This document shows positions 1,784 to 26,667 of a stretch of 56,665 nt of DNA, piece by piece. This DNA is from a virus. Each line of letters starts with the position of its first letter. Within the stretch, counting starts at the first letter, position 1. The position numbers were made by a program, and so were the translations under genes. Location: IMG/VR virus record IMGVR_UViG_3300035039_000184; one strand, given 5' to 3'. The notes under the pieces are model-generated. The model was not told the DNA's origin. It was given only the letters and a program-made list of their open reading frames with translations, and searched no databases.

Positions 1784-1786
1784 GGC

Positions 1787-2044: not shown

Positions 2045-2045
2045 A

Positions 2046-3348: not shown

Positions 3349-3606
3349 ATGGTTTTTGTTTTGGATAATCTAATAATCAGGAAAAAACTTGAGGATGTGA
3401 TAGAGTACGCTTATTGCGTCTTTAGGCATTTCCCTAAATCTGAGAGATTTACACTTGTTGCTGATATGAAGAGAAGCCTTGTGAAAATGCTTGAGCTGAT
3501 TATCCGGGCCAATAACTGGGCGTCGTTTCTGGGGTATATGAAGCACTGCTCGGGGATGATGACGGTTAGGGCCGCTGGCAGAGAAATGAAAATAAAATCA
3601 ACATAA
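3349..3606 (+). pseudogene. avd: truncated avd (DGR accessory variability determinant) remnant, possibly fused to the 3' tail of a deleted reverse transcriptase gene
   Basis: There is no SD. The first ~57 aa (LIIRKKLEDVIEYAYCVFRHFPKSERFTLVADMKRSLVKMLELIIRANN) match the Avd four-helix-bundle consensus (FPKxE(K/R)FxL...IRAN). From ~3515 the sequence switches to WASFLGYMKHCSG.., which resembles a DGR RT C-terminus. Full Avd proteins are ~110-130 aa. Confidence 0.65.
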
Positions 3607-3607
3607 G

Positions 3608-3636
3608 GGCAGGAGCCTTCGGGCTCCTTTTTTATT
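3608..3636 (+). terminator. rho-independent terminator
   Basis: Stem aggagcc/ggctcct with loop ttcg, followed by tttttatt. Confidence 0.7.
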
Positions 3637-3662
3637 TCCCGAAAAAGAGGGGAGGTGTTCTC

Positions 3663-4904
3663 ATGGTTGGAAGTATCGATCCGATGTACGAGCTCTGGAG
3701 ACAGACCTTCCTCAATAGTGGGTATTCAAAAACTCCCACTGTTGATGGACAGCCGTACTATTTTTCTATAGATCCCATCGAGATGTACAAGATCGAACAG
3801 GAAAAGAAGGAAGAGGAAAAGAAAAAAGAGACAGGCAATTCAATAGATCCCATGCAGAGAGAATACGGAAGAGGCCCGGATCTCGATAAATACGGCAACA
3901 GGATGGACGCAAGGGATACACCCTATGCCTACGAGCCTGAATACTGGCATTCCGATGCCTGGGCTCCGGATTACTCTCTGGGCGATTACGCGAAGACGGC
4001 AGGATACGGTCTCGGACTCCTGAAGACCGGGAAGGGGCTTATGTCAAATATTCTCGGGCTTAATCCATTGAGCAACCCTCTGAACGATCCTGGGAATATC
4101 GAGGGCATAAGTCAGATGGGCTCTGCCTACGGATTCGATCCTGACCTGATGAAGACTGCAATTGCAAACGTTTACGCAGGTCCAGGAAGCTCGGACGCAA
4201 AGGCTCCATCTGGAATTCTCGACGGAATTATCGGAGGATTTTCCGACATAGCAAAGGACGGACTGTCTGGTTTTGGAAACTTCACAGATGCGGAGATCTT
4301 CGCAAACGACACAATAAGAGGTCTTCTCGGAATGACCACAGACAAGTGGGGCGATTACAACTGGGCAGATATGGGCTATACCACTTTCGATCCGGCAAAG
4401 GCAGGGGCCGTAAACTGGGGGAACATAGATCCTCACAACGCGAGCCAGCTCATGGATGCCTACGAAGCGAGGTCAGAAAGGACCGGAACAGGAATGCCAA
4501 GTCCCATTGAAGTTGGAATACATTCGAGACTTATAGGAGACGAGCCATATCCGGGATTCAAGAAGCTCATGGAGGAGCGGCTCGCAAACTCCGACGACGG
4601 AGATCCCACAAATAACGCAGGATTCAAACAGGCGGCAGCTGCAAAAGCGGCTAAAGACTCAGGACTGAATGACATGATGGATAAGCCGCTCGACCAGTGG
4701 GACAACGACACGATAGACAACTACATAGACAGGAGAGCAGATCTGCAAGATGACGGAAAACGGAACAGCAGCAATAACAACGGTGGAGGAAACGGCGGAA
4801 GTAACACCAACTCCGGAGGCAACAACAGAGGAAGCGGAAGAGGTGCTTCTGTTGGGGTAGGATCAAACGGACGAGGCAGCGAGGGAGACTATGGGTTCCA
4901 TTAA
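3663..4904 (+). CDS. hypothetical internal-virion/ejection-type protein (low complexity, G/N/S-rich C-terminus)
   Basis: SD ggggagg is upstream. 413-aa ORF with a compositionally biased tail (NSSNNNGGGNGGSNTNSGGNNRGSGRG), located upstream of the giant gene. Confidence 0.5.
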   Translation: MVGSIDPMYELWRQTFLNSGYSKTPTVDGQPYYFSIDPIEMYKIEQEKKEEEKKKETGNSIDPMQREYGRGPDLDKYGNRMDARDTPYAYEPEYWHSDAWAPDYSLGDYAKTAGYGLGLLKTGKGLMSNILGLNPLSNPLNDPGNIEGISQMGSAYGFDPDLMKTAIANVYAGPGSSDAKAPSGILDGIIGGFSDIAKDGLSGFGNFTDAEIFANDTIRGLLGMTTDKWGDYNWADMGYTTFDPAKAGAVNWGNIDPHNASQLMDAYEARSERTGTGMPSPIEVGIHSRLIGDEPYPGFKKLMEERLANSDDGDPTNNAGFKQAAAAKAAKDSGLNDMMDKPLDQWDNDTIDNYIDRRADLQDDGKRNSSNNNGGGNGGSNTNSGGNNRGSGRGASVGVGSNGRGSEGDYGFH

Positions 4905-6413: not shown

Positions 6414-7511
6414 TTGGCAGGACTTTTGGACTATCTTATAAGATACGGACTTAACGACGCTTCACAGAGAAACGAAGCCTCCGCAATCCGAAGCCAGAGC
6501 ATTACAGACAACAACCTCGACCTGATAAAGGAACTCGGCAGAGCTTCCATCGAGCATGGATATAAGCTTGAAGATCCGAACGAGAACCTCTCAAGCTACG
6601 GAGTGCCTCTGGACGCTATAAACGGAGTTGCAGGTCAGGCTTTTCAGAGAGTTGGAGTAGGGCCTGAAGTGGAGAGGTTTTCAACTGCAGGAATGAACAC
6701 TCCGGAGGATATTCTCGGGTCCCTTTCATACGGGGACCTCAACCGTTCGAAAGGTGGAGCAGGAGAGGACTATACACAGGCCATACTTTCAAAGATCGCT
6801 CAGACTCAGGCAAACACTCCGGGGAATATCCCCTTTCTCGGGGCCAATCCCGATGTAGGAGCCGACACATTCGGGAATATGACCTCAAATCCACAGGGTT
6901 TTCTGGACGCACTTATAAGCGGCAACGCTGATTACGATGCCAGAGAGTACGGGCAACAGGCAGGTCTTGAGAACCTGAAACACGGCAATATGGTCAACAG
7001 AATTAATCTTGAACACGGCAATATTCTCGACAGAATGAGAGTGAAAGAGGAGATGAGTGCAGGATCAGGCCAGGAAGTAAACACCAATACTGTGATTGAG
7101 AGCATCCTCGATCCGGTAGCCTCTATAAGGGCCAACGCAAGAAAGACCTTCAACGAGCAGTACCAGATGATGAAGATGACCAATCCCGACCAGGAACCTG
7201 TAATGCCAGACACCTCGGACGCAGAGAAAAGGGCTATGGAGGAAAGCTATCGACTTACCAAACTGATGTACGGAGACAGTCCCGGTGTTGACTGGAACAA
7301 GGTTGACAGGCTTATGGAAATGAGGGGAATTTCGACAAGGCCGCAGAGTGCAAATATAGCGACTCCAGAATCTGTAGACAGGATGCTGAGAGAGGCCAGA
7401 AACAGGGCAAAGGAGAGCGGAGAAACTCCACCGACAAGAACTGAAATTATTAAAAGACTTCAGGACCGAGGCTGGGTAATTCAGGAAAACACTTCAGATA
7501 TGTCCGGTTAA
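6414..7511 (+). CDS. hypothetical protein (internal virion protein candidate), TTG start
   Basis: SD ggaggtg lies 8 nt upstream of TTG. 365-aa ORF. Confidence 0.5.
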   Translation: MAGLLDYLIRYGLNDASQRNEASAIRSQSITDNNLDLIKELGRASIEHGYKLEDPNENLSSYGVPLDAINGVAGQAFQRVGVGPEVERFSTAGMNTPEDILGSLSYGDLNRSKGGAGEDYTQAILSKIAQTQANTPGNIPFLGANPDVGADTFGNMTSNPQGFLDALISGNADYDAREYGQQAGLENLKHGNMVNRINLEHGNILDRMRVKEEMSAGSGQEVNTNTVIESILDPVASIRANARKTFNEQYQMMKMTNPDQEPVMPDTSDAEKRAMEESYRLTKLMYGDSPGVDWNKVDRLMEMRGISTRPQSANIATPESVDRMLREARNRAKESGETPPTRTEIIKRLQDRGWVIQENTSDMSG

Positions 7512-7525
7512 GAGGAGAGATAGCC

Positions 7526-10500
7526 ATGGATTATCTCGACGAAATAATAAGAAAATACGAGAGGGGGTCGAATGTATCGGCTCCCTCTTCTTCTTTTGAG
7601 AGGAAGGATAGGGAGAGACGGGAATCAGGAGATATCATCGACGAAGTTATAGACGGATACGAGACCGACTCTGCTTCAGGAGGTTCCAGGTTCAACTGGG
7701 ATCGTCCAGATGTACCAGAGGAGATGGACCGTACTTTAAACGACGTAATGTCAGGATATCCCGAATTTCCGTATCCATCAGGCATAGATCCAACCAGTGG
7801 AGACACTGATGAAAAAGAGCGAAGACTTCCCTACGGTACTGTCCTTGACAAGGATGTTCTCGCAGCGGATGCTGCCGACATGCTGATATCAAAATCAGGC
7901 AATGTGTCTCCAATTTCGGGACTTCCCGTTGATGAGAAAGAACCACTTTTCGGAGAGACAGGAAAAAAGATAGAGAAGGCATTTGGAGACAAGGGAATGC
8001 AGACCTTTTCAGGAATTCTCGGATCTGCGGGGGCCTTTGCAAGGAATGTGGAGAGGCTCGCTAATCCGGAAAATGAGCGAATAGAGGCTCCGGTAAATCC
8101 GGGAGTGCTTGGAACGGACGGCCAACTACTGAAAGGGATAGGAGACCGTGATCCCTACGAGAAGAAGAACACCATATTCAAGGCAGCAAAGGCAACAGCT
8201 GATTTTCTCGAAGAGGGGAATGAGCAGATACAGAAAAACCTCCTTCAAGGAGAGGACCCCACATTCTGGGATAAGGTTTTCAACGGAATAGGCTCAAGTG
8301 CCTTCTTTCTCGTTCCTGGAGCTCTTGCAGCAACGGGAATCGCAACGGCGGCAAAGTTCTCTCCGAGCGTGGCAAAATGGCTCGGTGCCGGTGTAGGCGG
8401 AGTAATGGAGGGCTTTGCAGATGCAGGAACCACATACAAGCAGGTACTTGACGACGGAGGGGACTTTCAGGACGCAAACGCAGCAGGCTCTCTTGCCTTC
8501 TGGATGAATGTGCCTCTTGACGTGATAACCGACAAGCTCGGTTTCTTCGGGGATAATAAGGCCACAAAAAGCTTGATAGCAAAGTCTCTCAGTGTCTTCG
8601 TGAAGAACCCGGCACTAAAGAACACCATGTCAAACGTGGCCGGAGGAATGGCAGGAAGAGGGCTTAACGAGATGTTCCAGGAGGGTGCACAGAACCCGAT
8701 CCAGGAGACTCTCACAGAAAAAGCTCTGGAGAAGTCAGGCAAGGGGACCCTGACATGGGCCGACGCTGTTAAGGCAATGCCAGAGATATCGGAAAGAGTA
8801 CCGGAGAGTATATATAACGAAGGGCTTCCGGCCTTTGTCTCTGCCGCAATATTTGGACTTCCAACTCATATGATGCAGATGGATCAGGAGCAGAGGGTGG
8901 AAGAAGAGAAATCGGCAAGAGAGAAGACCGTACAGGAACAGAGAACGAAGGGAATAATGGACGAAGCCTTTGAATCTGTTACGGGAATACCTTCAGGAAC
9001 AGAGGTCCGGCCAATAGTGGCAAAAAGAGACGAGGACATTTCCAGCCCGAGTGCTGGTGATGCTGTTGGAACGTACCTTGAGGGCGAGAAGGCCAAAACA
9101 ATAGACGCGGCCATAGACAAAGTTGCTGGAACACAGCAGGAGGCAGACGTAGCCAGATCCGAAAGATGGGCCGGTACGGTTGACGCTGTTAACGCCGTAA
9201 ATAAATATCTTGACGAGATGGAGCGTCAGCAGCAGGAACAGGACAAAAAGGAGAATGAGCCAGTCCAGAACGCAAGAAAAGACCTTCCTCAGGACATGCA
9301 GGATAATCTGAACGTTAACGATCTTGAGGGTCAGGTTCTTAAAAGATACAACAAGGACATGGACTTTCTCCAGGATCTCCAGAGAAGAAGAGAGGAACTT
9401 GGAGAGCAGGGTTATCAGGATCTGCTCAAGACTGCACTCAATAACCCGAAGGTGTATTCGGACTTCCGGAACAGGCAGAAACCTGTCCAGAAAGAAGAGC
9501 CCGTGAATCAGGATACCGCAAGGGCCGAAGAGATTGTTACCCCTGAAATCGAGGGGGAAAATGTCCAAGAGGTTGAAAAGCCTTCAGAGCCGGAGTCAAT
9601 CAAAAAGGGCGAAGTTGGGCAGAAACTCGGGTCCGGTGAAGTTGTCCTGACATCAACTGGCAGAAAAACAACTCCCTTCCCGAAGGTAGACATGTCCACA
9701 AACAGAAAAGCCGCCAACACAGTCAAGCGAGTTGACAGATGGCTTATCCAGAACGCCATCAATGAAGCGGAGCAGAGGGGAGACGAGTTTAATCTTTTGC
9801 AGTTCAGGGGGTCTCTTGATAATCCATCTCAGGCGGACAAGGACAGTGCTGCATATTATCTTTTCGACGAAGAGTTTATACAAAAGCCTGATCCTAAGAT
9901 TTTAAAGGACATGACCAAAGAACAACCATCGAAGTCAACAGACGATATTAAGCCTGGAGATACAGTATACCGCAAGGATAACGGTCAGGCCCTTGAGGTG
10001 GTAAATGCCGATGATCCTTCTCTTTTGACTGTGAAGCACCCAAAAACAGGGACACAGTTCCAGATGGGGAAAGGAACGGTCGAACTTGCTCCTGAAGGCC
10101 AAAATTTAGCTCCTGAGTCAATTCCCGAACCAGAGCCGACAAATACCCCTGATAAGGGGGATACAGGACGAACTGAGCCAGATATTCAGGCCGAGGGTCA
10201 AAAAAGAACCATCCAAGACCTCCAATCATTAACCTTTGACACCATCGAAATGGGTCATTGGGATAAGGAAACAGAGGGTGTCGGAAAAAACAAGGGAATT
10301 AAATACAGAACTGCCAAATATGCTGCCATTGACAGGGACGGCAAAGAGAGAATTTTCCAGGTCAAGGTTAGCAGTAACGGCAAAACTCAGGTTAAACCTC
10401 TTGGGAGAACCGACAGCCAAAAGGATGCTGATGACCAGTCAGAGTGGAGCAAGGTGCCAGAAGATGTACAAAGACTTGTAAATCTTCATTGGCCTGATCT

Positions 10501-13500
10501 GAACCTTTCGCAAAAAGCAACGATAGGGAAGATTGCTGCAGGGTTGCCAGTAAATGAAATGACTGCAAATGCTGTTCTTGGTGGGTCCGCAAGAAACAAA
10601 ATGCTTGAGCTTTTCCCGAATATCAAGACACTTGAAGATGGGAAAAGGGCTTTGCAAGAATACGTCCGACTAAAGAGAGAAGAAAAGAGTTCCGATATTG
10701 AGGCCGAGGGTCCAGGATTTACAGGTCTCGTGGGCGAGAAGACGCCAAGGGCTCTGGAGTCTCTCAAGCAATTGCTCGATGATCCCAATGCTGTCCATCT
10801 TAAAGGCAGATCCCTTAAATATGTAGAAGAAGACGGCAAGGGCTATTATGAAGACGAGGAAGGCACAAGGATGCCCGACTGGACCCCAATTCCGGGGAAT
10901 CCTGGATATTCCGCAAGGCAGTATGTCCGTGACAACACTCTTGAACCTGCCAAGGCAGTGCAGGAAGTGATGATAAACGAAAACGGAGCCATTGCCAGAA
11001 GGGTCTACAGAGACGGCGAACAGGAAGCCTATGGAGGATTTGAGGCAGAGGACAACCTTAAAAACTTCATGGCAGGAAAACCCTTTGAGGCGTTTTTCGA
11101 CTTCTTTAACCAGAAGCCTGATCAGATACAGGCCCCGGCGGAAGAAGCTCCGGAAGCAGCGCAGCCAGAGCTCACGGACTACCAGAGACAGAGGGAAGAG
11201 AACAGCAAGGCTGCCGATGAGGTCAGGACCTTGCAGACCAAGGGTCAGAACTCCGTTCCCGGCGTGAGGATCGAAGCTGCCGAAGAAGCCGGAAGGATGA
11301 GAGGTCTTCTTGAAAGCGGAGAGATCACCCAGGAAGAGTGGGACAGCTACGTTCAGGATCTCAAGGACTCCGGGAAAGTGGAAGCAGATGAAAGTGAGTC
11401 CAGTCCGGCAGAGAAAGAAACCTTGACCTACAGCCATGAAGATATCACGAGAAAAACTTACTCAGAGGGAGACCTTGTTCGCTTCCGCAAATCTATGGAC
11501 AAGAGCCCGAGAAAGATCGTGGAGATTGACAAGTCAGGGAAGGTCAGGCTTGAGGGTTCGGATGTATTGCGCGACACAGCCGAAATCGTTAAGGTCTCCG
11601 AAGAAGGGCAATCGGAGCAGAAGCCGGCTAAAAAACAGAAGAAATCACCGGCGAAAAAACTAAGGGGAGATTTTTCCAAGATCCCTGAGAAATACGCGAG
11701 CAAGATAGACACCGGAGAGAATATGGACGAGGACTGGGCTCGAAAGCAGGCTTTCATGGACGACGCAGCCAACTATCTCAGGAGCCTTGGAAAGGATCTC
11801 GGGTGGGAGCCATATCGAGGCAAAAACGGCAAGGGAAGCATTGTCAATAAAAATCCTTCCGGCCCAGCCACGAAGGGGAGCGTATCTGCTACATTCTTTG
11901 TGCCTAACCGGGACGAGGGCGTGTATATAACAATTGACGCAGATGGATCTAACATTTCCGGAGTAAAGTCCGCACCATACGGAACTCACATAATGTGGAG
12001 ATCCACCACGAGAAAGGATCCGTTCGGAGGAGGAACCAACCGTTTCGAGAATTGGGATATAACCACAGATGCCCTTTCATCCACTATAGAATCTGAACTT
12101 GACAGTGTAATTGCCAGAAACGACGGGAAAGCACAATCTCAGAAAAGTGATACAATAGTAAACAAAGGAGAGGGGGTAATCCCTAATGAGCCGGAAAGAA
12201 CTGTTAACGGAGATCGAGAAAGAACTGAACAAGAGAGCCAGCGAGGAGGACAGGAGCTTCCTGATGGCGGAGATACCGAAGGCGGAAGCGCTGTTGCCGC
12301 AGGCGGACGAGAACAGCCAGTCTTGGAAGACTCTGGTCAGAGGGCTGACGAAGATGTACGCGGAGCTGAACCTCCAGCTCGGGATGGTGTGCGAGAAACT
12401 GAACTATCCGACGAAACAGTGGGAATGGAAGGACAGCCAGCCACTGAGGATACTGGCGAGGAGCTACCATGGAATAGAGGCAACGGACTGGTACCAACGT
12501 CAGCTCGGGATGATGCTGACGCCACAGGACCATCCCTGGTATCGGATAATTACGACCTAAGAAACAAGGAACCTGTTCTCCTAACTAAGGGAGAAAGAAG
12601 GAGAATAAACGACCAGGCAAGGGAGCTTCTAAACAAGAAAGAGCCACTTACGGAAGACGAAAAGGACATCCTCCGGCAGTATACCGGGGAGGGTGGTCTT
12701 TCATCCGGATCTGTAGAGGCTTTAAATCAGCACTATACAGACTACCAGACCATAAGGGCAATATACGGAGCCCTGGAAAGGTCTGGTTTTTACTTTGAGA
12801 AGGCTCTTGAACCTGCTGTAGGCTCCGGAAACTTTATCGGCAACGCCCCAAGGGGTGTTGACTGGACCACAGTAGATATCGACAGCACAAATCACCAGAT
12901 AGCATCAAAACTGTATCCAGAGGGTAACCATTATCTTCTTTCCTACGAGCAGTTCAAGAAGAGTGGTTTTGACCTTGTTATATCAAACGTTCCATTTCTT
13001 CAGGAGCGAGGAGCAGGGGGGCTTAAAGTCAGGCCGGATATACAGACTCTTCACGACTTCTATTTCGTTCATTCTCTGGACAGGGTTAAGGACAACGGCA
13101 TTGTGGCCTTTATAACGTCCAAGGGAACCATGGACAAGAAGAATTCCTCCGTCAGAAAGGAGATCGTGGAAAAGGCCGATGTGCTTGGAGCCTTCCGTCT
13201 GCCTGGAGGGCATTTCGAGAAGAACGCCCATACCTCCGTTATAACCGACATTATTTTTCTGCAGAAAAGGCCCGAGGGGGCTGTGCCAAGTTCGGAGCAG
13301 AAGGCCATAAACGATTCTTTCGTTAAGGCAACGGAAACAGGGGATGGAATAGTTCTCAACAACTACTATCATGACCGTATGGAATCCAACTTCCTCGGAG
13401 AAGTGGAGGTTGGGAAGGATAAAGCGAGGTTCGGAAAGATCACCTACACCATAAACGGACAGGCAGACCTTTCCCGGATCGACATAGGACCCTATAGGCC

Positions 13501-16500
13501 ATACAAGATCCAGAAGAAGGAAAAGGCTGCTCCTGAATCCGTGGATGTTGACGAAATCCCGAGAGACTCCAAGGACTTCCAGAAATGGGCCTCTGAAAAC
13601 GACATCCTTACCCGTCAGAATATAACGAGGACGGGAACGGATCGAGACGGAAACTCCTTCGAGATCAAAGAGAGAGACCCCGGATTTTCCGAGAACATCA
13701 TCATAGAGTCTGATGCGGTGTACGCAGTGGATAAAGTCATAGACTTCGAGGACGTATCTGGCTCCGCAAAGATATACCGGGAGGTCTCATACAAAGAGAG
13801 AGACAGGATAAAAGATCTCGACTGGATAAGAAGAGACGCAGCTTCCTTTCAGGAGACATCCGATCCGAAGTATGCAGAGAGCGGAAAGAAGCTTATAGAG
13901 AGCTACCGGCAGATTCACAAGGTCCATCCTAAAAAAGACAAGAAGCTCCGGAAGATTTTCAAAGATGCAGGAGAGCAGACACTGTTTGCCGAGCTCTCGT
14001 CATTCTTTGACGAGGACTTCAACCCAGCTCCTGTCCTGGATATACAGACAAGATATTCGGACAGCGGAAGAGCAGAGGTCACAGATGATTCTCCTCTTTC
14101 CATAAGAGCCTTCGCAAATGAGGATAACAAGGGGATTGTCGATATCTCAAAAGCAGAACACCTCTCAATGGACGAACTCGGAGATCTTCTTCACAGTGGC
14201 TATTCCCTTGTTTCCATGGGCGAAGAAGGGGCTGTTGTCCAGAACGACGTGCTCTACTACTCAGGCAACATATACAGCAAAATAGAGAGCGCGGAGAAGA
14301 TCAAGAAGGACATCGAACTCGGCAGAGTTGACGACGGTCACGCAATTGGAGAGAAGCTCGACGAGCAGATACGAAGCCTTGAGGAGATAAAGCCATCTCC
14401 GAAGACTGTTGACGACATCAACTTCAAGGGAAACGAGAACTGGCTTTTGCCCATAATCAAGAAATACGGGATATGGGATATAGACAGCTCCTACGACAGG
14501 AAGAGCGGAAAGATCCAGTACGAAGCGACAAACGCAAGGGGCTTCCCTGACAGTGTGTACTCGAACTATCTTAACAACAATGTCCTCATAAAAAGAGACT
14601 TTGACCAGAGGACGCAGATGCAGGAGCCCATATCCTCATATCTGTCACGCATGAGAGAGGCCGAGGAGCACGTGACGGAGGTCGTGGAGACCATAAAGGA
14701 GCGGATCAAGAGTGATCAGCAGGCTGCCGAAGAGATAGAATACGCCTACAACTCCAAGTTCCGCGCCTACGTAAAACCCAACTACTCAAGAGCCCAGTAT
14801 CTTATTCAGGACGTTCTGAACGAGATAGAGGCAGAGTCCGTCAATCCCAAGGAAGCCGGACAACCGGTAAAGCTTCGCAAAAATCAGATCGAATGGATCA
14901 TCCAGGCGGTATATGAGGGCAAGGGAATAAACGCCCATGATGTTGGCGGAGGAAAGACCTTTGCCTCGATTGCGCTCGCGAGGGTGCTAAAAAAGAGGGG
15001 AATAGCCCACAAGCCTCTCTTCGTCGTCCCGGCGAAGACTATCAACAAGTGGGAGAGGGACATAAAGACGCTGTTTCCGAAAGCCAGAGTCCTCAACCTC
15101 GGACAATTGAGCAAGAACAAGAGGACAGAGCAGCTCTTTGAGCTGGCGAACAACAACTTTGACTATGTTGTGATAAGCCACGAGGGGTTCAAGGCGATAA
15201 AGCTTCCACTCGACACGGAGATGAAATATTTCGACGACGTTGTAAACGAGCATATCGACGATCCGGATATGAAGGGGAGTCAGGCCGCAAGGAACATGGA
15301 AAAGATAGAGAAGTATCGCACGGTCCTGAAGGAGGCCGAAAGAGATTCAAGGCTGACCTTTGACAAACTGGGAATAGACGCGATCATAGCCGACGAGGCT
15401 CATGCCTTCAAGAACATAGGCATACGGGGAGAGTTGAACAAGTTCGGGCTCGGGGCAGCCTTTGGATTCAGCAACCGGCAGAAAAACAGAAAGGATCCAA
15501 AGACCGGAAAGATAATGTACGGAGAAAACGGCAAGCCGCTGAAAGAGGATTCCGTATCGCTCATGTCCTCAAAATCCTACGACTTCCGGTTCAAGTCCAA
15601 CTGGATCATCGAGAACAACAACAATAAGAACGTATTTCTTCTCACTGCCACTCCGACGCCCAACAAACCCATGGAGATATACACCATGCTGAGACACCTC
15701 GGCAAGGACATCTTTGACGAGTACGGACTTGGAAGGGACATCGACTTTTCGAACAACTTCTTCCATCTCGGAACGGTGCAGAAGCCCGACGACCCCGGAC
15801 AGACCAAGAACGTCCTCTCCGCCATAATCAACGCCCTTGAGCTGAGGGGGATACTGAACCGGTACGTTGACAAGATATCCATAGAGGATATGCCATGGAT
15901 AAAGATCCCGGAGGCGAAAGAGTATCGCCAGTTCCTGAACATGTCAGAAGGATACCGGCTGATCGCCGAGGATCTTGCTGAAAGGCAGTCTCGCGCCGGA
16001 AGCGGAAGAAAGGGAGCCGGAGAAGACAACATCATTGCCATATACTCTGGAGGAAGAGCCGCCTCTGTCGACCCGAGGCTCTACGGAGGGGAACACGCAA
16101 ACGTTGAAGTTGACGTTAGGTCCTACGATCCTGGCGACGACAAGATCCAGTGGACCATCGAATCCGTGGCGGAGGTTGCTAAAAAGAACAGAAAGGCGGG
16201 GCAATTGATATTCCTCGACAAGGTGGGCTGGGAGCAGATCGAAAACGAGAAGCTCGCAGAGGACATGCACAGCGAGATAAAGAGTTCCCTCGTGGATATG
16301 GGGTTCAAGGAGAAGGAGATCGCCATAATCAACGGCAAGTATGTAACCAACCCCAAGACCGGAAGAGAGGTTGCGAGCGGAGACAAGAACCAGAGGAAGC
16401 AGGATATTGCCGACATGTACAACGAGGGCAAGGTCAAAGTAGTCATAGGATCTACCGACTCCATGGGAGAGGGCATGGATCTCCAAGTGAAGACCACGGA

Positions 16501-19500
16501 CATATATCACCTCGACATTCCCTGGACTCCCGGAGGATTCCGTCAGCGAAACGGCAGGGGCCTGCGGTTCGGAAACGAGAATGATTCCGTAAACATCCAC
16601 TATCTTCTCATGAGGGGGACCTTTGACGCCATAAGCATGGACGTTGTGATGCACAAGAAGGGATGGAACGAGGCCCTCTACGACAAGGAGGACGCCGACG
16701 TAATTCCCACTGCCGAGGAAATGGCAGGAGGGGCTATTCCTCCAAGGGAGCAGCTTCTTATCGAGCTTGAGACAGACCCGATAAAGAAACAGCAGCTTAT
16801 ACTGAGCTTCGACTACAAGAGGATGCAGGGAGAGCTCGGAGAGTACAATCAGGCTGCCTACCGAATAAGGAACCGTATCAGCACCGCACGAGAGGCGATA
16901 AAGGCCAACAGGCTGAGGCTCCAGGAGCGAGAACAGAAGCTGAGGGAGTCCAGTCCCAACGAGAAGATAAAGGACGAGAAGAAGCGTAAGGAACAGCACG
17001 AGAAGAGCAAGGCTTTTCTCAGAAAGGGTATAGAGACGTCCAAGAGGAAGATTCAGGAGATCGAGGACAAAATAACAACTCTCGAAAAGACCCTGGATGA
17101 GCTTGGAGAAAAGGCGAGAGACGCGAACGAGAGAATAAGCAGGTTCGAGGAAAGCTACCTCGACGAGGAGAAGAACTTCAGGAGAGACGTAATCGAAAGG
17201 CTTGCGGCAACAGAGGACAACCTCGACAACTCTCCGGCTCCGGACGAGAATTCCGGGACGGACACTGCCGAAGAGTTAGACCCTGACGAGGAGGTAACAC
17301 GGAGGATCAACGAAGCCTACGAGGAGAAAACTCCACCTGCCGGAGCCTCTGTCAAGTTTCTCAGGCCGGACGCTCTCATAAAGGCCCTGGACAGCAGAAA
17401 AAAGAACCAGGGCGTCAACGACTTCTTTGTCAAAAAAGACAAGAAGAAAAAGGACAGCGAGAGTGATCCCCGGACCTTCGAATTCACCGACAAGGAGATG
17501 GAGAAGGCCCACAAGGCGTACTCAAGGGGCATCGACAAGGAGAGTACGTGGAGCAAACTGCTTGAAGCCTTTATGGACATGAAGAACCGATCCACAAGGA
17601 CATTCCGGCACCTTCCGGGCGGAGCTCCCTTTGCCGTGGCAAGACATGTGCTGCTGCAGCTCAAGAGGACTATTCCTTCGGCACAGATGGACGCTGAAGA
17701 GAAGATAAGCGCCATTCTGACCAAGGAGACATCCGAGGGGATACAGCTCTACGATCGCACTGACCTGGACCTCTTCACGAGAAAGGTATATCTCGAGGAT
17801 TTTGCGAGAGACGCCAGAGACGGACTTTCACTTCCGGAAGGATACACTGAAGAGAACGTCAACGTGGAGCTCCAGAGGTTAAACGAGCACCTCAGGGAGA
17901 ACGCGCCCTGGATCCTCGACAGCTACCGACTGAGAACGGAGATGTGGAGAAAGGCAAAGAAGGAGTACATACGACAGGCAGGCAGGGCCGGAACGGACAT
18001 GTCCAAGAAGTTCACCAAGGGAGACTCCTATTTCCGTCATCAGGTCCTTGCTCACATGATGGACCAGGGAAGGTCCATATACGGGACCGGCAACAAGCTC
18101 AAGTCACCGGTTACGAGGGGTTTCCTGAAGGAAAGAAAGGGCTCTGAGCTTCCCATAAATCTCAACTACGCCCAGGCGGAATTCGAGGTTCTTGCTCAGA
18201 CCCTTGCGGATACCCATGTATGGGAGACAATCGCGATCATCGACGAGAACTACAGCATAACCGACAGGCTCAAGAAGATGGCTGTCGAGATGAACAACAA
18301 CAACTTCAAGGGGCTTATGGAGGAGCTCGTAAGGATAGAGCAGGGAGTCAAGACGGTGGACGAGGACGTCAGACACGAGGCCCAGAAGAGGATCAACAAG
18401 CTTTCCCAGAAGCAGGCCATAGCTCTCTCCCGGCTCAGCGAACTTGCAGCAATGGGAGAGCTGCCGACAGGCCCCAAGGGACAGTTCTCCCGGATCGTGC
18501 AGGAACTCGGCGATTACTACATGCTGAAAAAGGAGAACAAGAAGGACGACGTAGATGTAGGCAAGGTCAAGTTCAGTCACAAGGAGCTCATGAAGTACCT
18601 GTCCTGGCTCTCGAAACAGGAGGGAGACGGACAGGAGACCATTCTTTCCAGGACCTTCTTCAAGGGCGTGGCCGAGAAGAAGAAGGCTATAAAGGCCACC
18701 CTGAAGGCAGGAGATATCAAGGAGGTAAACTGGAAGGACCTTGTGCCAGACGACTACACCATATATCAGCCGAGGGAGGGTTCCGTCTTCTACAAGGCAT
18801 ACACCATACCGGAGCAGATGGCTGAGAGCATAGCCTCAGGTCTGCTCACAGGGCTGGACCTCACTCCCAACCAGGTCAAGGCCGTTCTCGCAAGAGGACC
18901 GAGGCACAAGGAGATGTGCATACCGACTCCACTTGCCGCGACCCTGGAGGAACTTAACCCCATGGGCTCAAGGAAGGAAGGGCCCTTTTCCGAGCTCTAC
19001 CATACTGGCATAAGGACCCTGAAGAAGTTCTGGCTATACGGACCTACAAGGTGGGTAAAGTACGCCTTCAGAAACCTTACCGGCGACTCAGAGGCCGTGG
19101 TTCTCGGCAGACAGTGGGACACTCTCAATCCGAAGCACCTCAAGAGGGCTACATGGGAGCTCTACCAGGCTGTTATGGCCCATCGAAAGCCGTCCAAGGA
19201 GTTCAAGGACTGGGCCCAGATGGGCGGATTCATGACCTTCGACAGGATCCAGGAACTTGGGGAACTCAAGGCACTTGAGAGGCTGCAACACCTTGAGGTC
19301 CCGGACGAGAGAGCCCTTTCGAAGATCAAGGACAAGACCTGGGACCGCTACTGGAGGGCCATCGACAAGGCGGAAGGAATAAGGGAGGGAGTTCTCCGTT
19401 ACGCCAGCTATCTGTCCTATCTCGAACAGATGGAGAACAACGAGAACGGAGAGCCGAACAACTTCGGAGCATCCAACCGAGATGAGATCATGGCCCTGCC

Positions 19501-20608
19501 CGACAAAAAATGGAGGGCCTTCCGGCTGTCAAATACCCTTTTAGGCGGATATGACGAGCTTACGGAGACCGGAGAATGGATGAGAAACAACATCTGGCCC
19601 TTCTGGAGCTTCCAGGAGATAAACCTGAAGAGGTATTTCTGGACCTTCAAGAACGCCTACATCGACGGCAGGACCGCAGGCAAGGCAGGAGAAGCCGTAA
19701 TGGGCTCCGCGATAAAGAGCTCTCCCTTCATAGCCATGAGGATAGGGACCTTCGCGATAAGGGCAAGCCTCTGGTGGGCGGCGATGCAAGCCTTCAACCG
19801 CTGGAGATGGCCCGAGGAGGAAGAGAACCTGCCGGAGCACGTTAAGAACAGACCTCACCTGATCGTGGGCAAGAACGACGCAGGAGAGGTGAAGGTGATG
19901 ACCAGGCTCGGGCTTCTGCCGGATCTCCTGGAATGGTTCGGAGACGAAACTCCTCCGAGATATGCCCGTGAATGGCTCAACGGCAACATGACCATTAAGG
20001 ACATTGGCGAGGAGATGGCCTTCGGAGTCATAAACAAGACCGTATCCGGGACTTTCCCCTTCATGAAGTTCTTTTACGAGATGTCCAGCGGAAGGTCCAC
20101 CTTTCCTGACGTGAGAAGACAGAGGCAGATACGGGATAAGTGGGAGTATCTCTACGACTGGGTTGGCCTCGGAGACTTCTACCGAGTGGCCACGGACCTC
20201 CCCGACAAGGGATGGACGGACCTTGCGGAGAGAGCTCTTTCCAACAAGTATGATCCTATGGAAAGTTCCTATTGGGACACCGTTTCCAGGGTATACGAGT
20301 GGAAGGAGGATGTCCTCGGACAGAAGGGGCAAGGCTACTATGAATCTCCGAAGTCCCAGGCCCTGTACTATTACAAGAAGTCCATAAGGTACGGAGACAA
20401 GGAAGCCGCAAAGAAATATCTTCTGGATTACTTCAGGGCAGGGGGAACAGCGAAGGGATACGAGCAGTCAATGAGGTGGCTTAACCCCCTTGCTGGAATC
20501 GCAAAGAAGTATTGGCCTGTCTTCTACAACTCCCTGGACGAGGGGGAGAAGAAGGCTTATAAGAGGGCAATGGCCTACTATCAGCAGATGCTGAACGTGG
20601 GCCCATGA
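7526..20608 (+). CDS. giant (4,360 aa) polyvalent virion-module protein with N6-adenine methyltransferase and SNF2/DEAH helicase modules (DarB-like)
   Basis: A single uninterrupted ORF of 13,083 nt with SD agaggagag upstream. It has N-terminal hydrophobic helices (aa ~250-300), MTase motifs I and IV, and helicase motifs I-VI (see sub-features). A terminator follows. Confidence 0.85.
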   Translation: MDYLDEIIRKYERGSNVSAPSSSFERKDRERRESGDIIDEVIDGYETDSASGGSRFNWDRPDVPEEMDRTLNDVMSGYPEFPYPSGIDPTSGDTDEKERRLPYGTVLDKDVLAADAADMLISKSGNVSPISGLPVDEKEPLFGETGKKIEKAFGDKGMQTFSGILGSAGAFARNVERLANPENERIEAPVNPGVLGTDGQLLKGIGDRDPYEKKNTIFKAAKATADFLEEGNEQIQKNLLQGEDPTFWDKVFNGIGSSAFFLVPGALAATGIATAAKFSPSVAKWLGAGVGGVMEGFADAGTTYKQVLDDGGDFQDANAAGSLAFWMNVPLDVITDKLGFFGDNKATKSLIAKSLSVFVKNPALKNTMSNVAGGMAGRGLNEMFQEGAQNPIQETLTEKALEKSGKGTLTWADAVKAMPEISERVPESIYNEGLPAFVSAAIFGLPTHMMQMDQEQRVEEEKSAREKTVQEQRTKGIMDEAFESVTGIPSGTEVRPIVAKRDEDISSPSAGDAVGTYLEGEKAKTIDAAIDKVAGTQQEADVARSERWAGTVDAVNAVNKYLDEMERQQQEQDKKENEPVQNARKDLPQDMQDNLNVNDLEGQVLKRYNKDMDFLQDLQRRREELGEQGYQDLLKTALNNPKVYSDFRNRQKPVQKEEPVNQDTARAEEIVTPEIEGENVQEVEKPSEPESIKKGEVGQKLGSGEVVLTSTGRKTTPFPKVDMSTNRKAANTVKRVDRWLIQNAINEAEQRGDEFNLLQFRGSLDNPSQADKDSAAYYLFDEEFIQKPDPKILKDMTKEQPSKSTDDIKPGDTVYRKDNGQALEVVNADDPSLLTVKHPKTGTQFQMGKGTVELAPEGQNLAPESIPEPEPTNTPDKGDTGRTEPDIQAEGQKRTIQDLQSLTFDTIEMGHWDKETEGVGKNKGIKYRTAKYAAIDRDGKERIFQVKVSSNGKTQVKPLGRTDSQKDADDQSEWSKVPEDVQRLVNLHWPDLNLSQKATIGKIAAGLPVNEMTANAVLGGSARNKMLELFPNIKTLEDGKRALQEYVRLKREEKSSDIEAEGPGFTGLVGEKTPRALESLKQLLDDPNAVHLKGRSLKYVEEDGKGYYEDEEGTRMPDWTPIPGNPGYSARQYVRDNTLEPAKAVQEVMINENGAIARRVYRDGEQEAYGGFEAEDNLKNFMAGKPFEAFFDFFNQKPDQIQAPAEEAPEAAQPELTDYQRQREENSKAADEVRTLQTKGQNSVPGVRIEAAEEAGRMRGLLESGEITQEEWDSYVQDLKDSGKVEADESESSPAEKETLTYSHEDITRKTYSEGDLVRFRKSMDKSPRKIVEIDKSGKVRLEGSDVLRDTAEIVKVSEEGQSEQKPAKKQKKSPAKKLRGDFSKIPEKYASKIDTGENMDEDWARKQAFMDDAANYLRSLGKDLGWEPYRGKNGKGSIVNKNPSGPATKGSVSATFFVPNRDEGVYITIDADGSNISGVKSAPYGTHIMWRSTTRKDPFGGGTNRFENWDITTDALSSTIESELDSVIARNDGKAQSQKSDTIVNKGEGVIPNEPERTVNGDRERTEQESQRGGQELPDGGDTEGGSAVAAGGREQPVLEDSGQRADEDVRGAEPPARDGVRETELSDETVGMEGQPATEDTGEELPWNRGNGLVPTSARDDADATGPSLVSDNYDLRNKEPVLLTKGERRRINDQARELLNKKEPLTEDEKDILRQYTGEGGLSSGSVEALNQHYTDYQTIRAIYGALERSGFYFEKALEPAVGSGNFIGNAPRGVDWTTVDIDSTNHQIASKLYPEGNHYLLSYEQFKKSGFDLVISNVPFLQERGAGGLKVRPDIQTLHDFYFVHSLDRVKDNGIVAFITSKGTMDKKNSSVRKEIVEKADVLGAFRLPGGHFEKNAHTSVITDIIFLQKRPEGAVPSSEQKAINDSFVKATETGDGIVLNNYYHDRMESNFLGEVEVGKDKARFGKITYTINGQADLSRIDIGPYRPYKIQKKEKAAPESVDVDEIPRDSKDFQKWASENDILTRQNITRTGTDRDGNSFEIKERDPGFSENIIIESDAVYAVDKVIDFEDVSGSAKIYREVSYKERDRIKDLDWIRRDAASFQETSDPKYAESGKKLIESYRQIHKVHPKKDKKLRKIFKDAGEQTLFAELSSFFDEDFNPAPVLDIQTRYSDSGRAEVTDDSPLSIRAFANEDNKGIVDISKAEHLSMDELGDLLHSGYSLVSMGEEGAVVQNDVLYYSGNIYSKIESAEKIKKDIELGRVDDGHAIGEKLDEQIRSLEEIKPSPKTVDDINFKGNENWLLPIIKKYGIWDIDSSYDRKSGKIQYEATNARGFPDSVYSNYLNNNVLIKRDFDQRTQMQEPISSYLSRMREAEEHVTEVVETIKERIKSDQQAAEEIEYAYNSKFRAYVKPNYSRAQYLIQDVLNEIEAESVNPKEAGQPVKLRKNQIEWIIQAVYEGKGINAHDVGGGKTFASIALARVLKKRGIAHKPLFVVPAKTINKWERDIKTLFPKARVLNLGQLSKNKRTEQLFELANNNFDYVVISHEGFKAIKLPLDTEMKYFDDVVNEHIDDPDMKGSQAARNMEKIEKYRTVLKEAERDSRLTFDKLGIDAIIADEAHAFKNIGIRGELNKFGLGAAFGFSNRQKNRKDPKTGKIMYGENGKPLKEDSVSLMSSKSYDFRFKSNWIIENNNNKNVFLLTATPTPNKPMEIYTMLRHLGKDIFDEYGLGRDIDFSNNFFHLGTVQKPDDPGQTKNVLSAIINALELRGILNRYVDKISIEDMPWIKIPEAKEYRQFLNMSEGYRLIAEDLAERQSRAGSGRKGAGEDNIIAIYSGGRAASVDPRLYGGEHANVEVDVRSYDPGDDKIQWTIESVAEVAKKNRKAGQLIFLDKVGWEQIENEKLAEDMHSEIKSSLVDMGFKEKEIAIINGKYVTNPKTGREVASGDKNQRKQDIADMYNEGKVKVVIGSTDSMGEGMDLQVKTTDIYHLDIPWTPGGFRQRNGRGLRFGNENDSVNIHYLLMRGTFDAISMDVVMHKKGWNEALYDKEDADVIPTAEEMAGGAIPPREQLLIELETDPIKKQQLILSFDYKRMQGELGEYNQAAYRIRNRISTAREAIKANRLRLQEREQKLRESSPNEKIKDEKKRKEQHEKSKAFLRKGIETSKRKIQEIEDKITTLEKTLDELGEKARDANERISRFEESYLDEEKNFRRDVIERLAATEDNLDNSPAPDENSGTDTAEELDPDEEVTRRINEAYEEKTPPAGASVKFLRPDALIKALDSRKKNQGVNDFFVKKDKKKKDSESDPRTFEFTDKEMEKAHKAYSRGIDKESTWSKLLEAFMDMKNRSTRTFRHLPGGAPFAVARHVLLQLKRTIPSAQMDAEEKISAILTKETSEGIQLYDRTDLDLFTRKVYLEDFARDARDGLSLPEGYTEENVNVELQRLNEHLRENAPWILDSYRLRTEMWRKAKKEYIRQAGRAGTDMSKKFTKGDSYFRHQVLAHMMDQGRSIYGTGNKLKSPVTRGFLKERKGSELPINLNYAQAEFEVLAQTLADTHVWETIAIIDENYSITDRLKKMAVEMNNNNFKGLMEELVRIEQGVKTVDEDVRHEAQKRINKLSQKQAIALSRLSELAAMGELPTGPKGQFSRIVQELGDYYMLKKENKKDDVDVGKVKFSHKELMKYLSWLSKQEGDGQETILSRTFFKGVAEKKKAIKATLKAGDIKEVNWKDLVPDDYTIYQPREGSVFYKAYTIPEQMAESIASGLLTGLDLTPNQVKAVLARGPRHKEMCIPTPLAATLEELNPMGSRKEGPFSELYHTGIRTLKKFWLYGPTRWVKYAFRNLTGDSEAVVLGRQWDTLNPKHLKRATWELYQAVMAHRKPSKEFKDWAQMGGFMTFDRIQELGELKALERLQHLEVPDERALSKIKDKTWDRYWRAIDKAEGIREGVLRYASYLSYLEQMENNENGEPNNFGASNRDEIMALPDKKWRAFRLSNTLLGGYDELTETGEWMRNNIWPFWSFQEINLKRYFWTFKNAYIDGRTAGKAGEAVMGSAIKSSPFIAMRIGTFAIRASLWWAAMQAFNRWRWPEEEENLPEHVKNRPHLIVGKNDAGEVKVMTRLGLLPDLLEWFGDETPPRYAREWLNGNMTIKDIGEEMAFGVINKTVSGTFPFMKFFYEMSSGRSTFPDVRRQRQIRDKWEYLYDWVGLGDFYRVATDLPDKGWTDLAERALSNKYDPMESSYWDTVSRVYEWKEDVLGQKGQGYYESPKSQALYYYKKSIRYGDKEAAKKYLLDYFRAGGTAKGYEQSMRWLNPLAGIAKKYWPVFYNSLDEGEKKAYKRAMAYYQQMLNVGP
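12600..13300 (+). other. N6-adenine DNA methyltransferase module of the giant protein
   Basis: AdoMet motif LEPAVGSGNF (12806-12838) and catalytic motif ISNVPF (NVPF at 12985-12996), a (D/N)PP(Y/F)-type variant. Confidence 0.7.
14870..16650 (+). other. SNF2-family helicase module of the giant protein
   Basis: HDVGGGKTF (motif I, ~14945), IIADEAHAFKN (DEAH, 15392-15403), LLTATPTPN (motif III), STDSMGEGMDLQ (motif V), FRQRNGRGLRFGN (motif VI, ~16544). Confidence 0.8.
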
Positions 20609-20630: not shown

Positions 20631-20660
20631 GAGGATCCTTTCCAGGGTCCTCCTTTTTTT
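20631..20660 (+). terminator. rho-independent terminator after the giant gene
   Basis: Stem gaggatcc/gggtcctc (one G-U pair), loop tttcca, then cttttttt. Confidence 0.65.
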
Positions 20661-25779: not shown

Positions 25780-26667
25780 ATGGGGAAACTGAAAATGCTT
25801 GACCTCTTCAGCGGCATAGGCGGGGTCAGCCTTGGAGCGGAAATGACAGGTTGTATTGAGACAGTGGGGTTCTGTGAGATAGAGCCGTTCTGCCAGAGGG
25901 TACTTAAAAAACATTGGCCTGACGTGCCGATTTACACAGACATAAAGGAGTTGACGGCAGAAGATGTGGGATCAGTTGACATTGTTGCAGGTGGTGCCCC
26001 TTGTCAACCATACTCTGTCAACGGAAAAAGACAGGGAGGAAAAGACGAAAGACACCTATGGCCTGAAATGTTCCGATTGGTCAGAGATATCAGACCCAGT
26101 TGGATGGTTTTTGAGAATGTCCCTGGAATCCTGTCTGGAACAATCGACGAGATCCTCAGTGACTTGGAAAGCGAAGGGTACAAAAGCTGGACATATGTAT
26201 ACGGAGCTAATCTATTTGGAGCAGAGCACAAAAGAAACAGGGTCTTCGTTATTGCAGAAAAGAGGGCAATATGGCCCGGAGAATATATATGGGAAGAAGG
26301 ATGGGAAGAACCATACTGCCCCGTTTGCCGAGTTGAATTTGGAAGTAACGAGTGTTTCCACGACGGAATCACAAGTTGGTTTGATGAAAAAATATCCGAT
26401 GATCCCGACACTGAGAGCCAGCGAATGGAAAGGATGTGGCCCGAAGGGGTCAAAATCCCACAACCACTGGTTAAAACACTTTTACCTCTCCGCAATAGTA
26501 ACGGACAGTGGGAAACTGAACCCGACTTTCGCAGAACGGATGATGGGATTCCCGGAAGGGTGGACAAACATAAATCAGCAAGATTGAAAGCCCTCGGCAA
26601 CGCAGTAGTACCGCAGCAGATATACCCTATATTCTGGGCGATCAGTCAAATGGAGGTGCAGAAATGA
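25780..26667 (+). CDS. DNA (cytosine-5) methyltransferase
   Basis: Motif I LFSGIGG, motif IV GGAPCQPYS, motif VI ENVPG, motif VIII KRNRVFVIA, motif X LGNAVVPQ. Confidence 0.85.
   Translation: MGKLKMLDLFSGIGGVSLGAEMTGCIETVGFCEIEPFCQRVLKKHWPDVPIYTDIKELTAEDVGSVDIVAGGAPCQPYSVNGKRQGGKDERHLWPEMFRLVRDIRPSWMVFENVPGILSGTIDEILSDLESEGYKSWTYVYGANLFGAEHKRNRVFVIAEKRAIWPGEYIWEEGWEEPYCPVCRVEFGSNECFHDGITSWFDEKISDDPDTESQRMERMWPEGVKIPQPLVKTLLPLRNSNGQWETEPDFRRTDDGIPGRVDKHKSARLKALGNAVVPQQIYPIFWAISQMEVQK

Follow-up and report, generated by a model that had tools for sequence, protein, structure and literature searches.

A giant open reading frame of an uncultured podovirus encodes a predicted DarB-type methylase-helicase dyad set between conserved terminal modules

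The IMG/VR virus record IMGVR_UViG_3300035039_000184 (a window of 56,665 nucleotides (nt), meaning the whole stretch of DNA that was analysed) contains an open reading frame (ORF) at positions 7526-20608 whose 4,360-amino-acid (aa) product, hereafter the giant protein, is probably a chassis protein that is packaged, ejected and used to deliver an anti-restriction dyad of the DarB type, a DNA methylase joined to a helicase. The ORF, the domain homologies, the intact motifs, the chassis-plus-cargo architecture across the family and the synteny are seen directly, whereas packaging, ejection, the roles of the two terminal modules and the anti-restriction activity of this particular protein are what we infer. 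Given the homology of the dyad, the position of the gene, and the detection of related giants in the virions of phages H66 and JC1, an injected multi-domain counter-defence protein, as suggested in an earlier note written from the DNA sequence alone, is still the best reading. We propose that a chassis, consisting of an N-terminal module (N-module, aa ~175-477) and a C-terminal module (C-module, aa 3318-4360), carries variable cargo, which in the present protein is the dyad at aa ~1690-3190.

The DarB-type methylase-helicase dyad

Judged by its sequence, the centre of the giant protein is a genuine DarB-type methylase-SNF2 dyad, composed of two predicted domains:

12596-13501, plus strand: DarB-type N6-adenine methyltransferase, aa 1691-1992 (P1 DarB alignment, PHROG matches, motifs I and IV)
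14075-17083, plus strand: DarB-type SWI2/SNF2 helicase/translocase, aa ~2184-3186 (Pfam, PHROG, P1 DarB and PDB sequence matches)

The methyltransferase motifs LEPAVGSGNF (aa 1761) and ISNVPF (aa 1819), as well as the SNF2/DEAH set comprising GGGKT (aa 2474), DEAH (aa 2623), TATP (aa 2707) and QRNGRG (aa 3007), all lie where the earlier note had placed them. Superfamily 2 helicase motifs I, II, III and VI are intact (GGGKT, DEAH, TATP and QRNGRGLR). A blastp comparison with DarB of phage P1 (2,255 aa) returned three collinear blocks: the methyltransferase (aa 1691-1992 against DarB aa 47-364, E = 6e-20), the helicase N-lobe (aa 2324-2837 against aa 732-1243, E = 1e-18) and the helicase C-lobe (aa 2961-3047 against aa 1463-1548, E = 2e-17). 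The two proteins are collinear over aa ~1690-3050 of the giant protein, with all catalytic motifs intact and in the same order, N6-adenine methyltransferase followed by SWI2/SNF2 helicase. This collinearity, together with a shared NVPF form of motif IV, confirms that the methyltransferase and SNF2 domains are DarB-like. Since P1 DarB and 7 of the other 10 aligned dyad relatives have the identical NVPF, it represents the family norm and gives no sign of decay. Both P1 DarB and the giant protein also lack an insert of ~45 aa that is present behind the YTGxGG motif in most other dyad relatives.

Profile searches treat the two halves of the dyad differently. For the helicase, the predicted significance was obtained in Pfam, where SNF2-rel_dom (E = 8e-15), ResIII and Helicase_C all exceed their cut-offs, and the closest solved sequences are the chromatin-remodeller ATPases INO80 and ISWI together with SsoRad54. 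For the methyltransferase, Pfam fell short, its sole match (Eco57I, 19.5 bits) being below the cut-off of 25.3; significance came instead from P1 DarB and from PHROG profiles in the range of E 1e-122 to 1e-148, including phrog_11801 (E = 5e-148), phrog_10089 (a 4,647-position profile labelled 'DarB-like antirestriction', E = 2e-122) and phrog_1685. No RNA polymerase family was found in the giant protein by Pfam, PHROG or NCBIfam scans.

Iyer et al. (2017) described the 'DNA methylase-helicase dyad', with DarB as its archetype, along with capsid-packaged polyvalent proteins; DarB itself is a virion head protein that acts in cis to protect entering DNA against type I restriction (PMC5512222). 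The giant protein follows the polyvalent design, combining the methyltransferase and SNF2 domains with at least five further modules in a virion-gene context. A methylase-helicase could alternatively remain unpackaged and act inside the cell in self-protection or superinfection exclusion, as a relative of type ISP, DISARM or BREX systems, and the helicase C-lobe does give weak NCBIfam matches to DISARM DrmD and to a PLD anti-phage protein (E ~1e-10, far under the cut-offs). We regard such an intracellular function as highly improbable: Pfam and NCBIfam scans revealed no nuclease or other defence partner domain, the gene ends a late virion operon, homologues have been detected in virions by mass spectrometry (H66, JC1), and the cargo found in the family is typical of polyvalent proteins.

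The conserved terminal modules

The earlier note suspected that the long flanks of the dyad might hide new effectors. For the most part they do not: they consist mainly of conserved modules (aa ~175-477 and the last ~1,040 aa) that are common to proteins with different cargo. The terminal features are as follows:

7526-8047, plus strand: N-terminal leader, aa 1-174 (composition; low AlphaFold2 confidence)
8048-8956, plus strand: conserved N-module, aa ~175-477, alpha-helical and Gly/Ala-rich (iterative hidden Markov model (HMM); alignment A3; AlphaFold2)
8276-8362, plus strand: the only hydrophobic segment of membrane-helix grade, aa 251-279, within the N-module (Kyte-Doolittle 19-residue maximum 1.59)
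17477-20605, plus strand: conserved C-module, aa 3318-4360, mostly alpha-helical (alignments A1 and A2; profile search; AlphaFold2)
18284-18730, plus strand: helical insertion of ~130-150 aa within the C-module, aa ~3587-3735 (alignment A1, in which short family members lack it)

No Pfam, PHROG or NCBIfam model covers the C-module. When 50,697 phage records were searched by tblastn with the last 1,160 aa of the protein, there were zero matches, and phmmer searches of the N- and C-terminal thirds of the giant protein against PDB sequences returned nothing meaningful. With the C-terminal region as query, a word-index search retrieved one identical fragment and two relatives (1,390 and 1,620 aa) that share this region only, at 38% identity. 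When 1.84 billion representatives were then searched exhaustively with a profile, 2,499 C-module clusters emerged at E <= 1e-3, of which 1,829 reached E <= 1e-30. This unnamed family spans contigs binned into metagenome-assembled genomes of many bacterial phyla, in addition to two sphingomonad isolate genomes. Among the best 150 matches, the proteins range from 927 to 5,484 aa, the module ends a median of 6.5 residues before the end of the protein, and more than 50 residues follow it in only 6 of the 150.

The family can be described as a helical module of ~880-1,040 aa with the motifs YFRHQVL, RGFLKxRxGS, KYNxRNxxGD, PFWSW and RPHII. Residues 3318-4357 of the giant protein score 1,044 bits against the family HMM, and its C-module is 33-39% identical to the 49 other aligned members. 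The span of the C-module is at least 960 aa, reflecting the insertion, in 69-78% of members of at least 2,500 aa vs 4-8% of those below 1,700 aa; the insertion may scale with cargo size or may mark one clade. An AlphaFold2 model built from an alignment of 50 diverse members is mostly helical (predicted local distance difference test (pLDDT) 75; predicted template modelling score (pTM) 0.71). Foldseek found no significant fold match for this model in the PDB (best E = 0.48). Among the predicted viral structures of BFVD, 32 matches were obtained at E <= 1e-3, the best of which mostly align nearly the whole ~1,000-aa module. The targets are mainly pieces of long phage proteins, including those of Cellulophaga phage phi19:3, Anabaena phage A-4L ('tail protein'), Ralstonia phage Alix and Escherichia phage PTXU04; many are annotated 'large polyvalent protein associated domain-containing', and other labels include LT_GEWL, RelA/SpoT, zeta toxin, ART-PolyVal and DNA methylase.

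Upstream of the C-module, the cargo varies widely: a PBECR3 nuclease, SLT, GGDEF, ART-PolyVal, a helicase of the Strawberry-notch type (Sno-type), other methyltransferases or nothing recognisable. The same DarB-type dyad occurs in 10 of the 150 best C-module representatives, each of at least 2,716 aa, and a scan of genome assemblies added five loci with both dyad and C-module. Three of these five, on a Nitrospira-binned contig and in two sphingomonad isolate genomes, have ORFs of at least 4,090-4,340 aa. The isolates are Sphingopyxis flava R11H (L043) and Novosphingobium sp. FKTRR1 (L045), with ORFs of at least 4,340 aa (match 10001-13012), which lie on large chromosomal contigs and are probably prophages. 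At another locus, on a Denitrovibrio-binned contig (L041, 107-12631), the dyad is a separate gene of 2,099 aa located two genes upstream of the C-module gene, and the C-module is divided between two adjacent ORFs (1,317 and 340 aa). This locus is a natural unfused, and possibly decaying, version of the same system; the occurrence of dyad and C-module there as separate neighbouring genes ties the two together functionally.

Could the C-module itself be an enzyme or effector of unknown activity, and the giant protein a string of effectors? Among the 50 diverse members (from separate 50%-identity clusters), 35 positions are invariant, 20 of them polar or charged (D, E, R, K, H, N, Y and S, for example in YFRHQ, RNxxGD and RPH), and several LPD domains without assignment look enzymatic according to Iyer et al. 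(PMC5512222). This interpretation is nevertheless quite unlikely. The module is mostly helical, measures ~900 aa and, regardless of cargo, sits strictly at the C-terminus in almost all members, a pattern that one typically sees in anchoring or assembly domains; moreover, the C-module fold matches no enzyme.

At the other end, the leader begins with ~95 acidic and polar-rich residues (stretches at aa 20-55 and 58-93), has no assignment over its remainder and is followed by the N-module. No Pfam or PHROG match was found for aa 1-480. An iterative profile seeded from aa 100-480 showed that 30 of the 150 family representatives carry the ~300-aa N-module, in each case close to the N-terminus, with the conserved blocks SRxxESxxEAGxTY, EAxEEGxQE and GGxxGxGxG (alignment A3). 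The N-module HMM also matches PTXU04 gp25 (aa 225-363, E ~1e-10 to 6e-10) and, weakly but over nearly the full profile, Gly/Ala-rich regions of H66 gp60 (aa 43-331, E = 5e-7, 18 bits) and of Gervaise gp28 (aa 279-611, E = 6e-6, 14.5 bits); P1 DarB gave no match. Because both terminal modules are shared by proteins with entirely different cargo, they have the appearance of a chassis.

Two hydrophobic helices had been reported in the giant protein. The first, now delimited to aa 251-279, stands, and the second, at aa 4010-4060, is weak, the best window (aa 4068-4086) reaching 1.11. The description of the N-terminus as pore-former-like was a guess that found no fold support: the AlphaFold2 model of the N-module (pLDDT 65 overall, above 80 for most of aa ~289-430) has no significant PDB match (Foldseek, best E = 0.76), which is a weak test given the low model confidence over the hydrophobic segment.

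Comparison with giant proteins of known phages

The size and layout of the giant protein, initially thought unusual, have precedents in Bcep22-like and Ralstonia podoviruses, whose DarB-like giants of 4,500-4,600 aa take up ~22% of the genome. Every Bcep22-like phage is reported to encode such a protein; in phage JC1 it is gp69 (4,515 aa, 22.1% of the genome), which was detected in purified virions by mass spectrometry and is encoded upstream of the lysis module, with two small reverse-strand genes in between (PMC9144972). The authors of that study found no homologues of the P1 Dar partner proteins and described head genes of the 933W type (PMC9144972). Gp28 of Ralstonia phage Gervaise (4,511 aa, 'DarB-like antirestriction') carries a dyad 24% identical to the present one over ~1,560 aa, and its lysis module lies ~1.2 kb downstream, past two short opposite-strand genes. 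Bcep22 gp75, JC1 gp69 and Gervaise gp28 share with the giant protein the size class, the genome share (22-23%) and the genomic position, whereas their regions before the dyad are unrelated to it except for the weak N-module match, and the C-terminus of gp28 is missed by the C-module HMM.

Another virion protein of this kind is gp60 of the F116-like Pseudomonas phage H66 (Hollowayvirus), which has 3,787 aa and is annotated as 'PLxRFG domain-containing' and 'verified by mass spectrometry as part of the virion'. Its gene is directly followed by a terminator, holin, endolysin and spanin. In addition to the weak N-module match, gp60 shares a 46%-identical module with the giant protein (gp60 aa 637-774 against aa 681-823) but has no blastp match to the DarB-type dyad, and its C-terminus is the NCBIfam PLxRFG/tail-700 domain, which is not detectably related to the C-module. 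Neither the H66 nor the Gervaise giant is homologous to the present protein over its whole length, and only single modules are held in common (BLAST, HMM). The location at the end of the virion module beside lysis genes, which the earlier note emphasised, recurs in H66, Gervaise and JC1.

The idea that the C-module is a divergent PLxRFG/tail-700 domain was considered and rejected at the sequence level (negative NF032893 scan; hhalign probability 0.1). The PLxRFG/tail-700 domain was not found in PTXU04 gp25 or Gervaise gp28 either. The C-termini of these giants belong to several sequence families that are alike at most in fold.

PTXU04 gp25 (2,197 aa), a putative polyvalent protein half the size of the giant protein, also lies at the end of the virion module beside lysis genes. 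No DarB dyad was detected in it. It contains the N-module, and Foldseek matched the C-module model to its C-terminal half (E = 4e-8, probability 1.0, ~1,100 columns); hhalign of the C-module profile against this half is not significant (probability 0.3), although a small number of motifs are similar. The gene has been classed as 'Fit', and its knockdown strongly lowers plating (PMC11879866).

For encapsidation and injection, the closest parallel in design is the virion RNA polymerase of coliphage N4, whose N-terminal region serves injection and whose C-terminal region serves encapsidation (Iyer et al. 2017, PMC5512222). This protein, gp50 (~3,500 aa), is likewise a podovirus-packaged, injected giant with terminal delivery regions around a central enzyme. 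Its RNA polymerase domain, however, is absent from the giant protein and no relation in sequence or fold was seen, so that the analogy is one of design only. The giant gene resembles those of T7 gp16-type core proteins in its location behind the genes for head and tail, and the genome has a portal of the T7 supergroup. T7 gp16 carries an SLT lytic transglycosylase, as do some C-module family members of 1,200-1,600 aa. The giant protein, by comparison, lacks SLT and matches none of the solved ejection proteins in sequence or fold.

P1 DarB differs from the giant protein in lacking the N-module and the C-module and in being about half as long. P1 is a myovirus in which darB is located away from the lysis genes, whereas the present gene adjoins them. 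In P1, DarB enters the head with the help of the partner proteins DarA, Hdf, DdrA, DdrB and Ulx. When P1 DarA, DdrA, DdrB and Ulx were searched against the genome by tblastn, only chance-level matches (E >= 0.49) were obtained; since these partners are not encoded, incorporation of the giant protein must differ from that in P1.

The darB gene of P1 is dispensable on non-restricting hosts. Accordingly, the present protein might be a purely accessory DarB-like head protein that enters the capsid and the host solely to counter restriction, with ends that are packaging tags and play no part in the ejection conduit or in the assembly of the particle, and a gene likewise dispensable on such hosts. 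The homology to P1 DarB, described in the literature only as a DNA-protecting virion head protein (PMC5512222), favours this interpretation, as does the lack of a match between either terminal module and a known ejectosome fold. We consider it unlikely for several reasons: P1 DarB has neither terminal module, the P1 partners searched for are missing from the genome, the chassis is kept in short members (927-1,300 aa) with little or no recognisable cargo, and PTXU04 gp25, which has the N-module, is required for plaque formation (PMC11879866). Given the loss of PTXU04 plating upon gp25 knockdown, a structural or ejection role fits better than a dispensable accessory.

Proposed mechanism and its assessment

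A packaged, injected counter-defence protein is the reading that best accommodates the DarB-type dyad and the position shared with virion-detected giants. According to this model, the giant protein would be made late, as the product of the last gene of the virion operon, and a few copies would enter the capsid. The N- and C-modules would supply encapsidation and ejection, in the manner of the terminal regions of the N4 virion RNA polymerase. At infection, the protein would be ejected through the tail with the DNA or ahead of it. Once in the cytoplasm, where S-adenosylmethionine and ATP are available, the dyad would load on the entering genome and shield it in cis from type I-like restriction, as P1 DarB does.

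Several points weigh against this model. Both presence in virions and ejection are deduced for an uncultured phage read from sequence. The C-module has no sequence relation to the C-termini of virion-detected giants (hhalign 0.1 for H66; the HMM misses H66 and Gervaise), its link to the C-terminal half of PTXU04 gp25 is structural only (template modelling (TM) score ~0.4; hhalign not significant), and H66 and Gervaise match the N-module with low scores (18 and 14.5 bits) in a compositionally biased region. Foldseek searches of the PDB with the N- and C-module models produced no fold match to a solved ejection or core protein. Moreover, the effect of the PTXU04 gp25 knockdown could stem from polarity or from the cargo instead of the chassis, and the C-module has 20 invariant polar residues, which are also compatible with an enzymatic function.

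A broader proposal, which we put forward only tentatively and think somewhat less likely to be right than wrong, is that the N- and C-modules together form a widespread unnamed delivery chassis, an ejectosome or internal-core part that accepts almost any cargo in podovirus-like phages of many bacterial phyla and comprises at least 2,499 protein clusters. The cargo injected with the DNA would then comprise anti-restriction dyads, ADP-ribosyltransferases, nucleases, cyclases and lytic transglycosylases, and the size of the cargo would be reflected in the helical insertion of the C-module.

Extent and integrity of the open reading frame

The uninterrupted frame reported in the earlier note was recovered in full, from an ATG start to the stop codon, with these features at its ends:

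7512-7517, plus strand: ribosome-binding site GAGGAG, read from the sequence, 8 nt before the ATG
7526-20608, plus strand: whole giant ORF, 13,083 nt, 4,360 codons without an internal stop
20631-20652, plus strand: terminator-like hairpin, 9-bp stem and T-run, 23 nt past the stop codon (the regional count of such sites equals chance)

The GAGGAG abuts the stop codon of the preceding ORF (6414-7511), and the giant ORF makes up 23.1% of the genome (~56,538 bp). Its length alone is unusual enough to raise the question of an assembly chimera or of several genes joined through sequencing errors. Contigs assembled independently from different samples, at least four in number (a JGI contig of 56,536 bp and three from Logan runs), encode exactly the same 4,360-aa product, which effectively excludes a chimera or frameshift artefact. 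Furthermore, base composition gives odds of ~1e-107 for 4,360 stop-free codons arising at random, and the domain order recurs in about ten relatives of 2,700-4,300 aa. The probability that we assign to an artefact is negligible.

Megablast of the giant ORF against the 50,697 phage records gave zero matches, and tblastn with the central 1,500 aa of the protein matched 142 phage records. No internal repeats were found within the protein. Terminator-like sites around the ORF are as frequent as in shuffled sequence; the H66 record annotates a terminator at the place equivalent to the hairpin at 20631-20652. Two further observations concern the ORF. A strong hairpin lies at 7559-7589 on the plus strand, 33 nt inside the frame (13-bp stem with 7 G-C pairs, followed by a T-rich tract), and could be an attenuator, a translational control element or a product of chance. 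The G+C content at 16001-20000, which covers the helicase end and the C-module, is 0.53-0.55 vs ~0.48 genome-wide, a difference that may stem from amino-acid composition or from a separate origin of this module.

Mosaic region and linkers

Between the N-module and the dyad, small globular modules alternate with acidic or polar linkers, and a charged linker connects the dyad to the C-module:

8963-12565, plus strand: mosaic region, aa ~480-1680 (no Pfam and no PDB sequence match; patchy matches to other giants)
9545-9994, plus strand: module at aa 674-823, common to F116-type giants and family member P0024 (phrog_11358, unknown function)
10196-10747, plus strand: module at aa 891-1074, common to family member P0096 (42% identity)
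11744-12112, plus strand: module at aa 1407-1529, common to family member P0135 (32% identity)
16916-17476, plus strand: charged coiled-coil linker, aa ~3131-3317 (composition; weak coiled-coil-type Pfam matches)

The only profile match within aa ~480-1680, in Pfam, PHROG and PDB sequence searches, is phrog_11358, and the mosaic modules recur singly in other giants. A word-index search with residues 891-1200 returned no homologue; one with the N-terminal 1,700 aa returned nothing and also missed the known H66 match, probably because low-complexity linkers swamped the index. The long coiled-coil and acidic linkers noted earlier are present, in the form of charged or acidic linkers and a coiled-coil stretch at aa ~3090-3230. 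If the giant protein contains new effector domains, the mosaic region is the sole remaining place where they could lie.

Genome context and neighbouring genes

The ends of the window share an exact 127-nt repeat, which indicates a circularly closed genome of ~56.5 kb (~56,538 bp). Based on its portal protein, whose closest cultured relatives are T7-supergroup podoviruses at no more than 30% identity, the phage is an uncultured, distant podovirus lineage. The main genes are arranged as follows, in order across the circular junction:

41196: terminase
47079: portal
49454: probable scaffold
50551-51498: major head protein
51752-52681, plus strand: LAGLIDADG homing endonuclease (phrog_11023, E = 4e-19)
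54377: Hc3-like head-closure protein
Across the junction, at 451 and at 2046: tail-fibre genes (tail-fibre-like ORF 2046-3326)
3349-3606, plus strand: bAvd-like ORF, 85 aa (Pfam bAvd PF22296, precomputed match)
3663, 5256 and 6414: three ORFs just upstream of the giant ORF that match no family
20681: GH108 endolysin, directly downstream of the giant ORF
21760: holin(s), after the endolysin
25780-26667, plus strand: C5-cytosine DNA methyltransferase (PF00145), adjoining RecE/RecT

The giant gene is the last large gene of the virion module and lies upstream of the lysis genes. Of the neighbours originally described, the lysis cassette downstream (GH108 endolysin and holin) was recovered, whereas the upstream ORFs at 3663, 5256 and 6414 could not be recognised as internal-virion-type genes. 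The RecE/RecT genes come after the holin(s), and the adjoining C5-cytosine enzyme is a second phage methylase beside the DarB-type N6-methyladenine enzyme, and one that is presumably not packaged. The upstream genes at the loci of family members P0002 and P0003 and at 37 genome loci share almost nothing with the other genes of the present phage. It follows that the C-module family crosses phage lineages and that inference from neighbouring genes is limited.

A few features elsewhere in the genome deserve mention. The tail-fibre gene that spans the junction (1-200 and 56466-56665) contains imperfect internal DNA repeats encoding a motif of the type DGxGSGLDADLLDG. The LAGLIDADG homing endonuclease gene is situated inside the structural operon, right behind the major head protein gene. 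The bAvd-like ORF directly follows the tail-fibre-like ORF; bAvd is the accessory protein of diversity-generating retroelements, and such an element was considered at this site and rejected, as no template-repeat/variable-repeat pair was found for the ORF. No reverse-transcriptase Pfam match is present among the called genes nearby. The ORF may be a remnant of such a retroelement or an Avd-like protein in another role.

Significance

The giant protein is a further, uncultured case of a strategy known from Burkholderia, Ralstonia and Pseudomonas podoviruses, in which a podovirus spends about one fifth of its genome on a packaged DarB-like protein. What is new here is the recognition of the terminal modules of such a giant as a family-wide chassis, foremost the large unnamed C-terminal family. 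The 'dark' ends of giant proteins turn out to be conserved modules, found again in thousands of phage proteins whose cargo is interchangeable, and a name for the C-module family would help to annotate a large gene that is common in phages. For the packaging and ejection of half-megadalton proteins, tractable models are available in PTXU04 gp25 and in the prophages of Sphingopyxis flava and Novosphingobium. If the delivery-chassis proposal is true, these modules would constitute a natural programmable protein-injection scaffold and a major unannotated structural family of phages.

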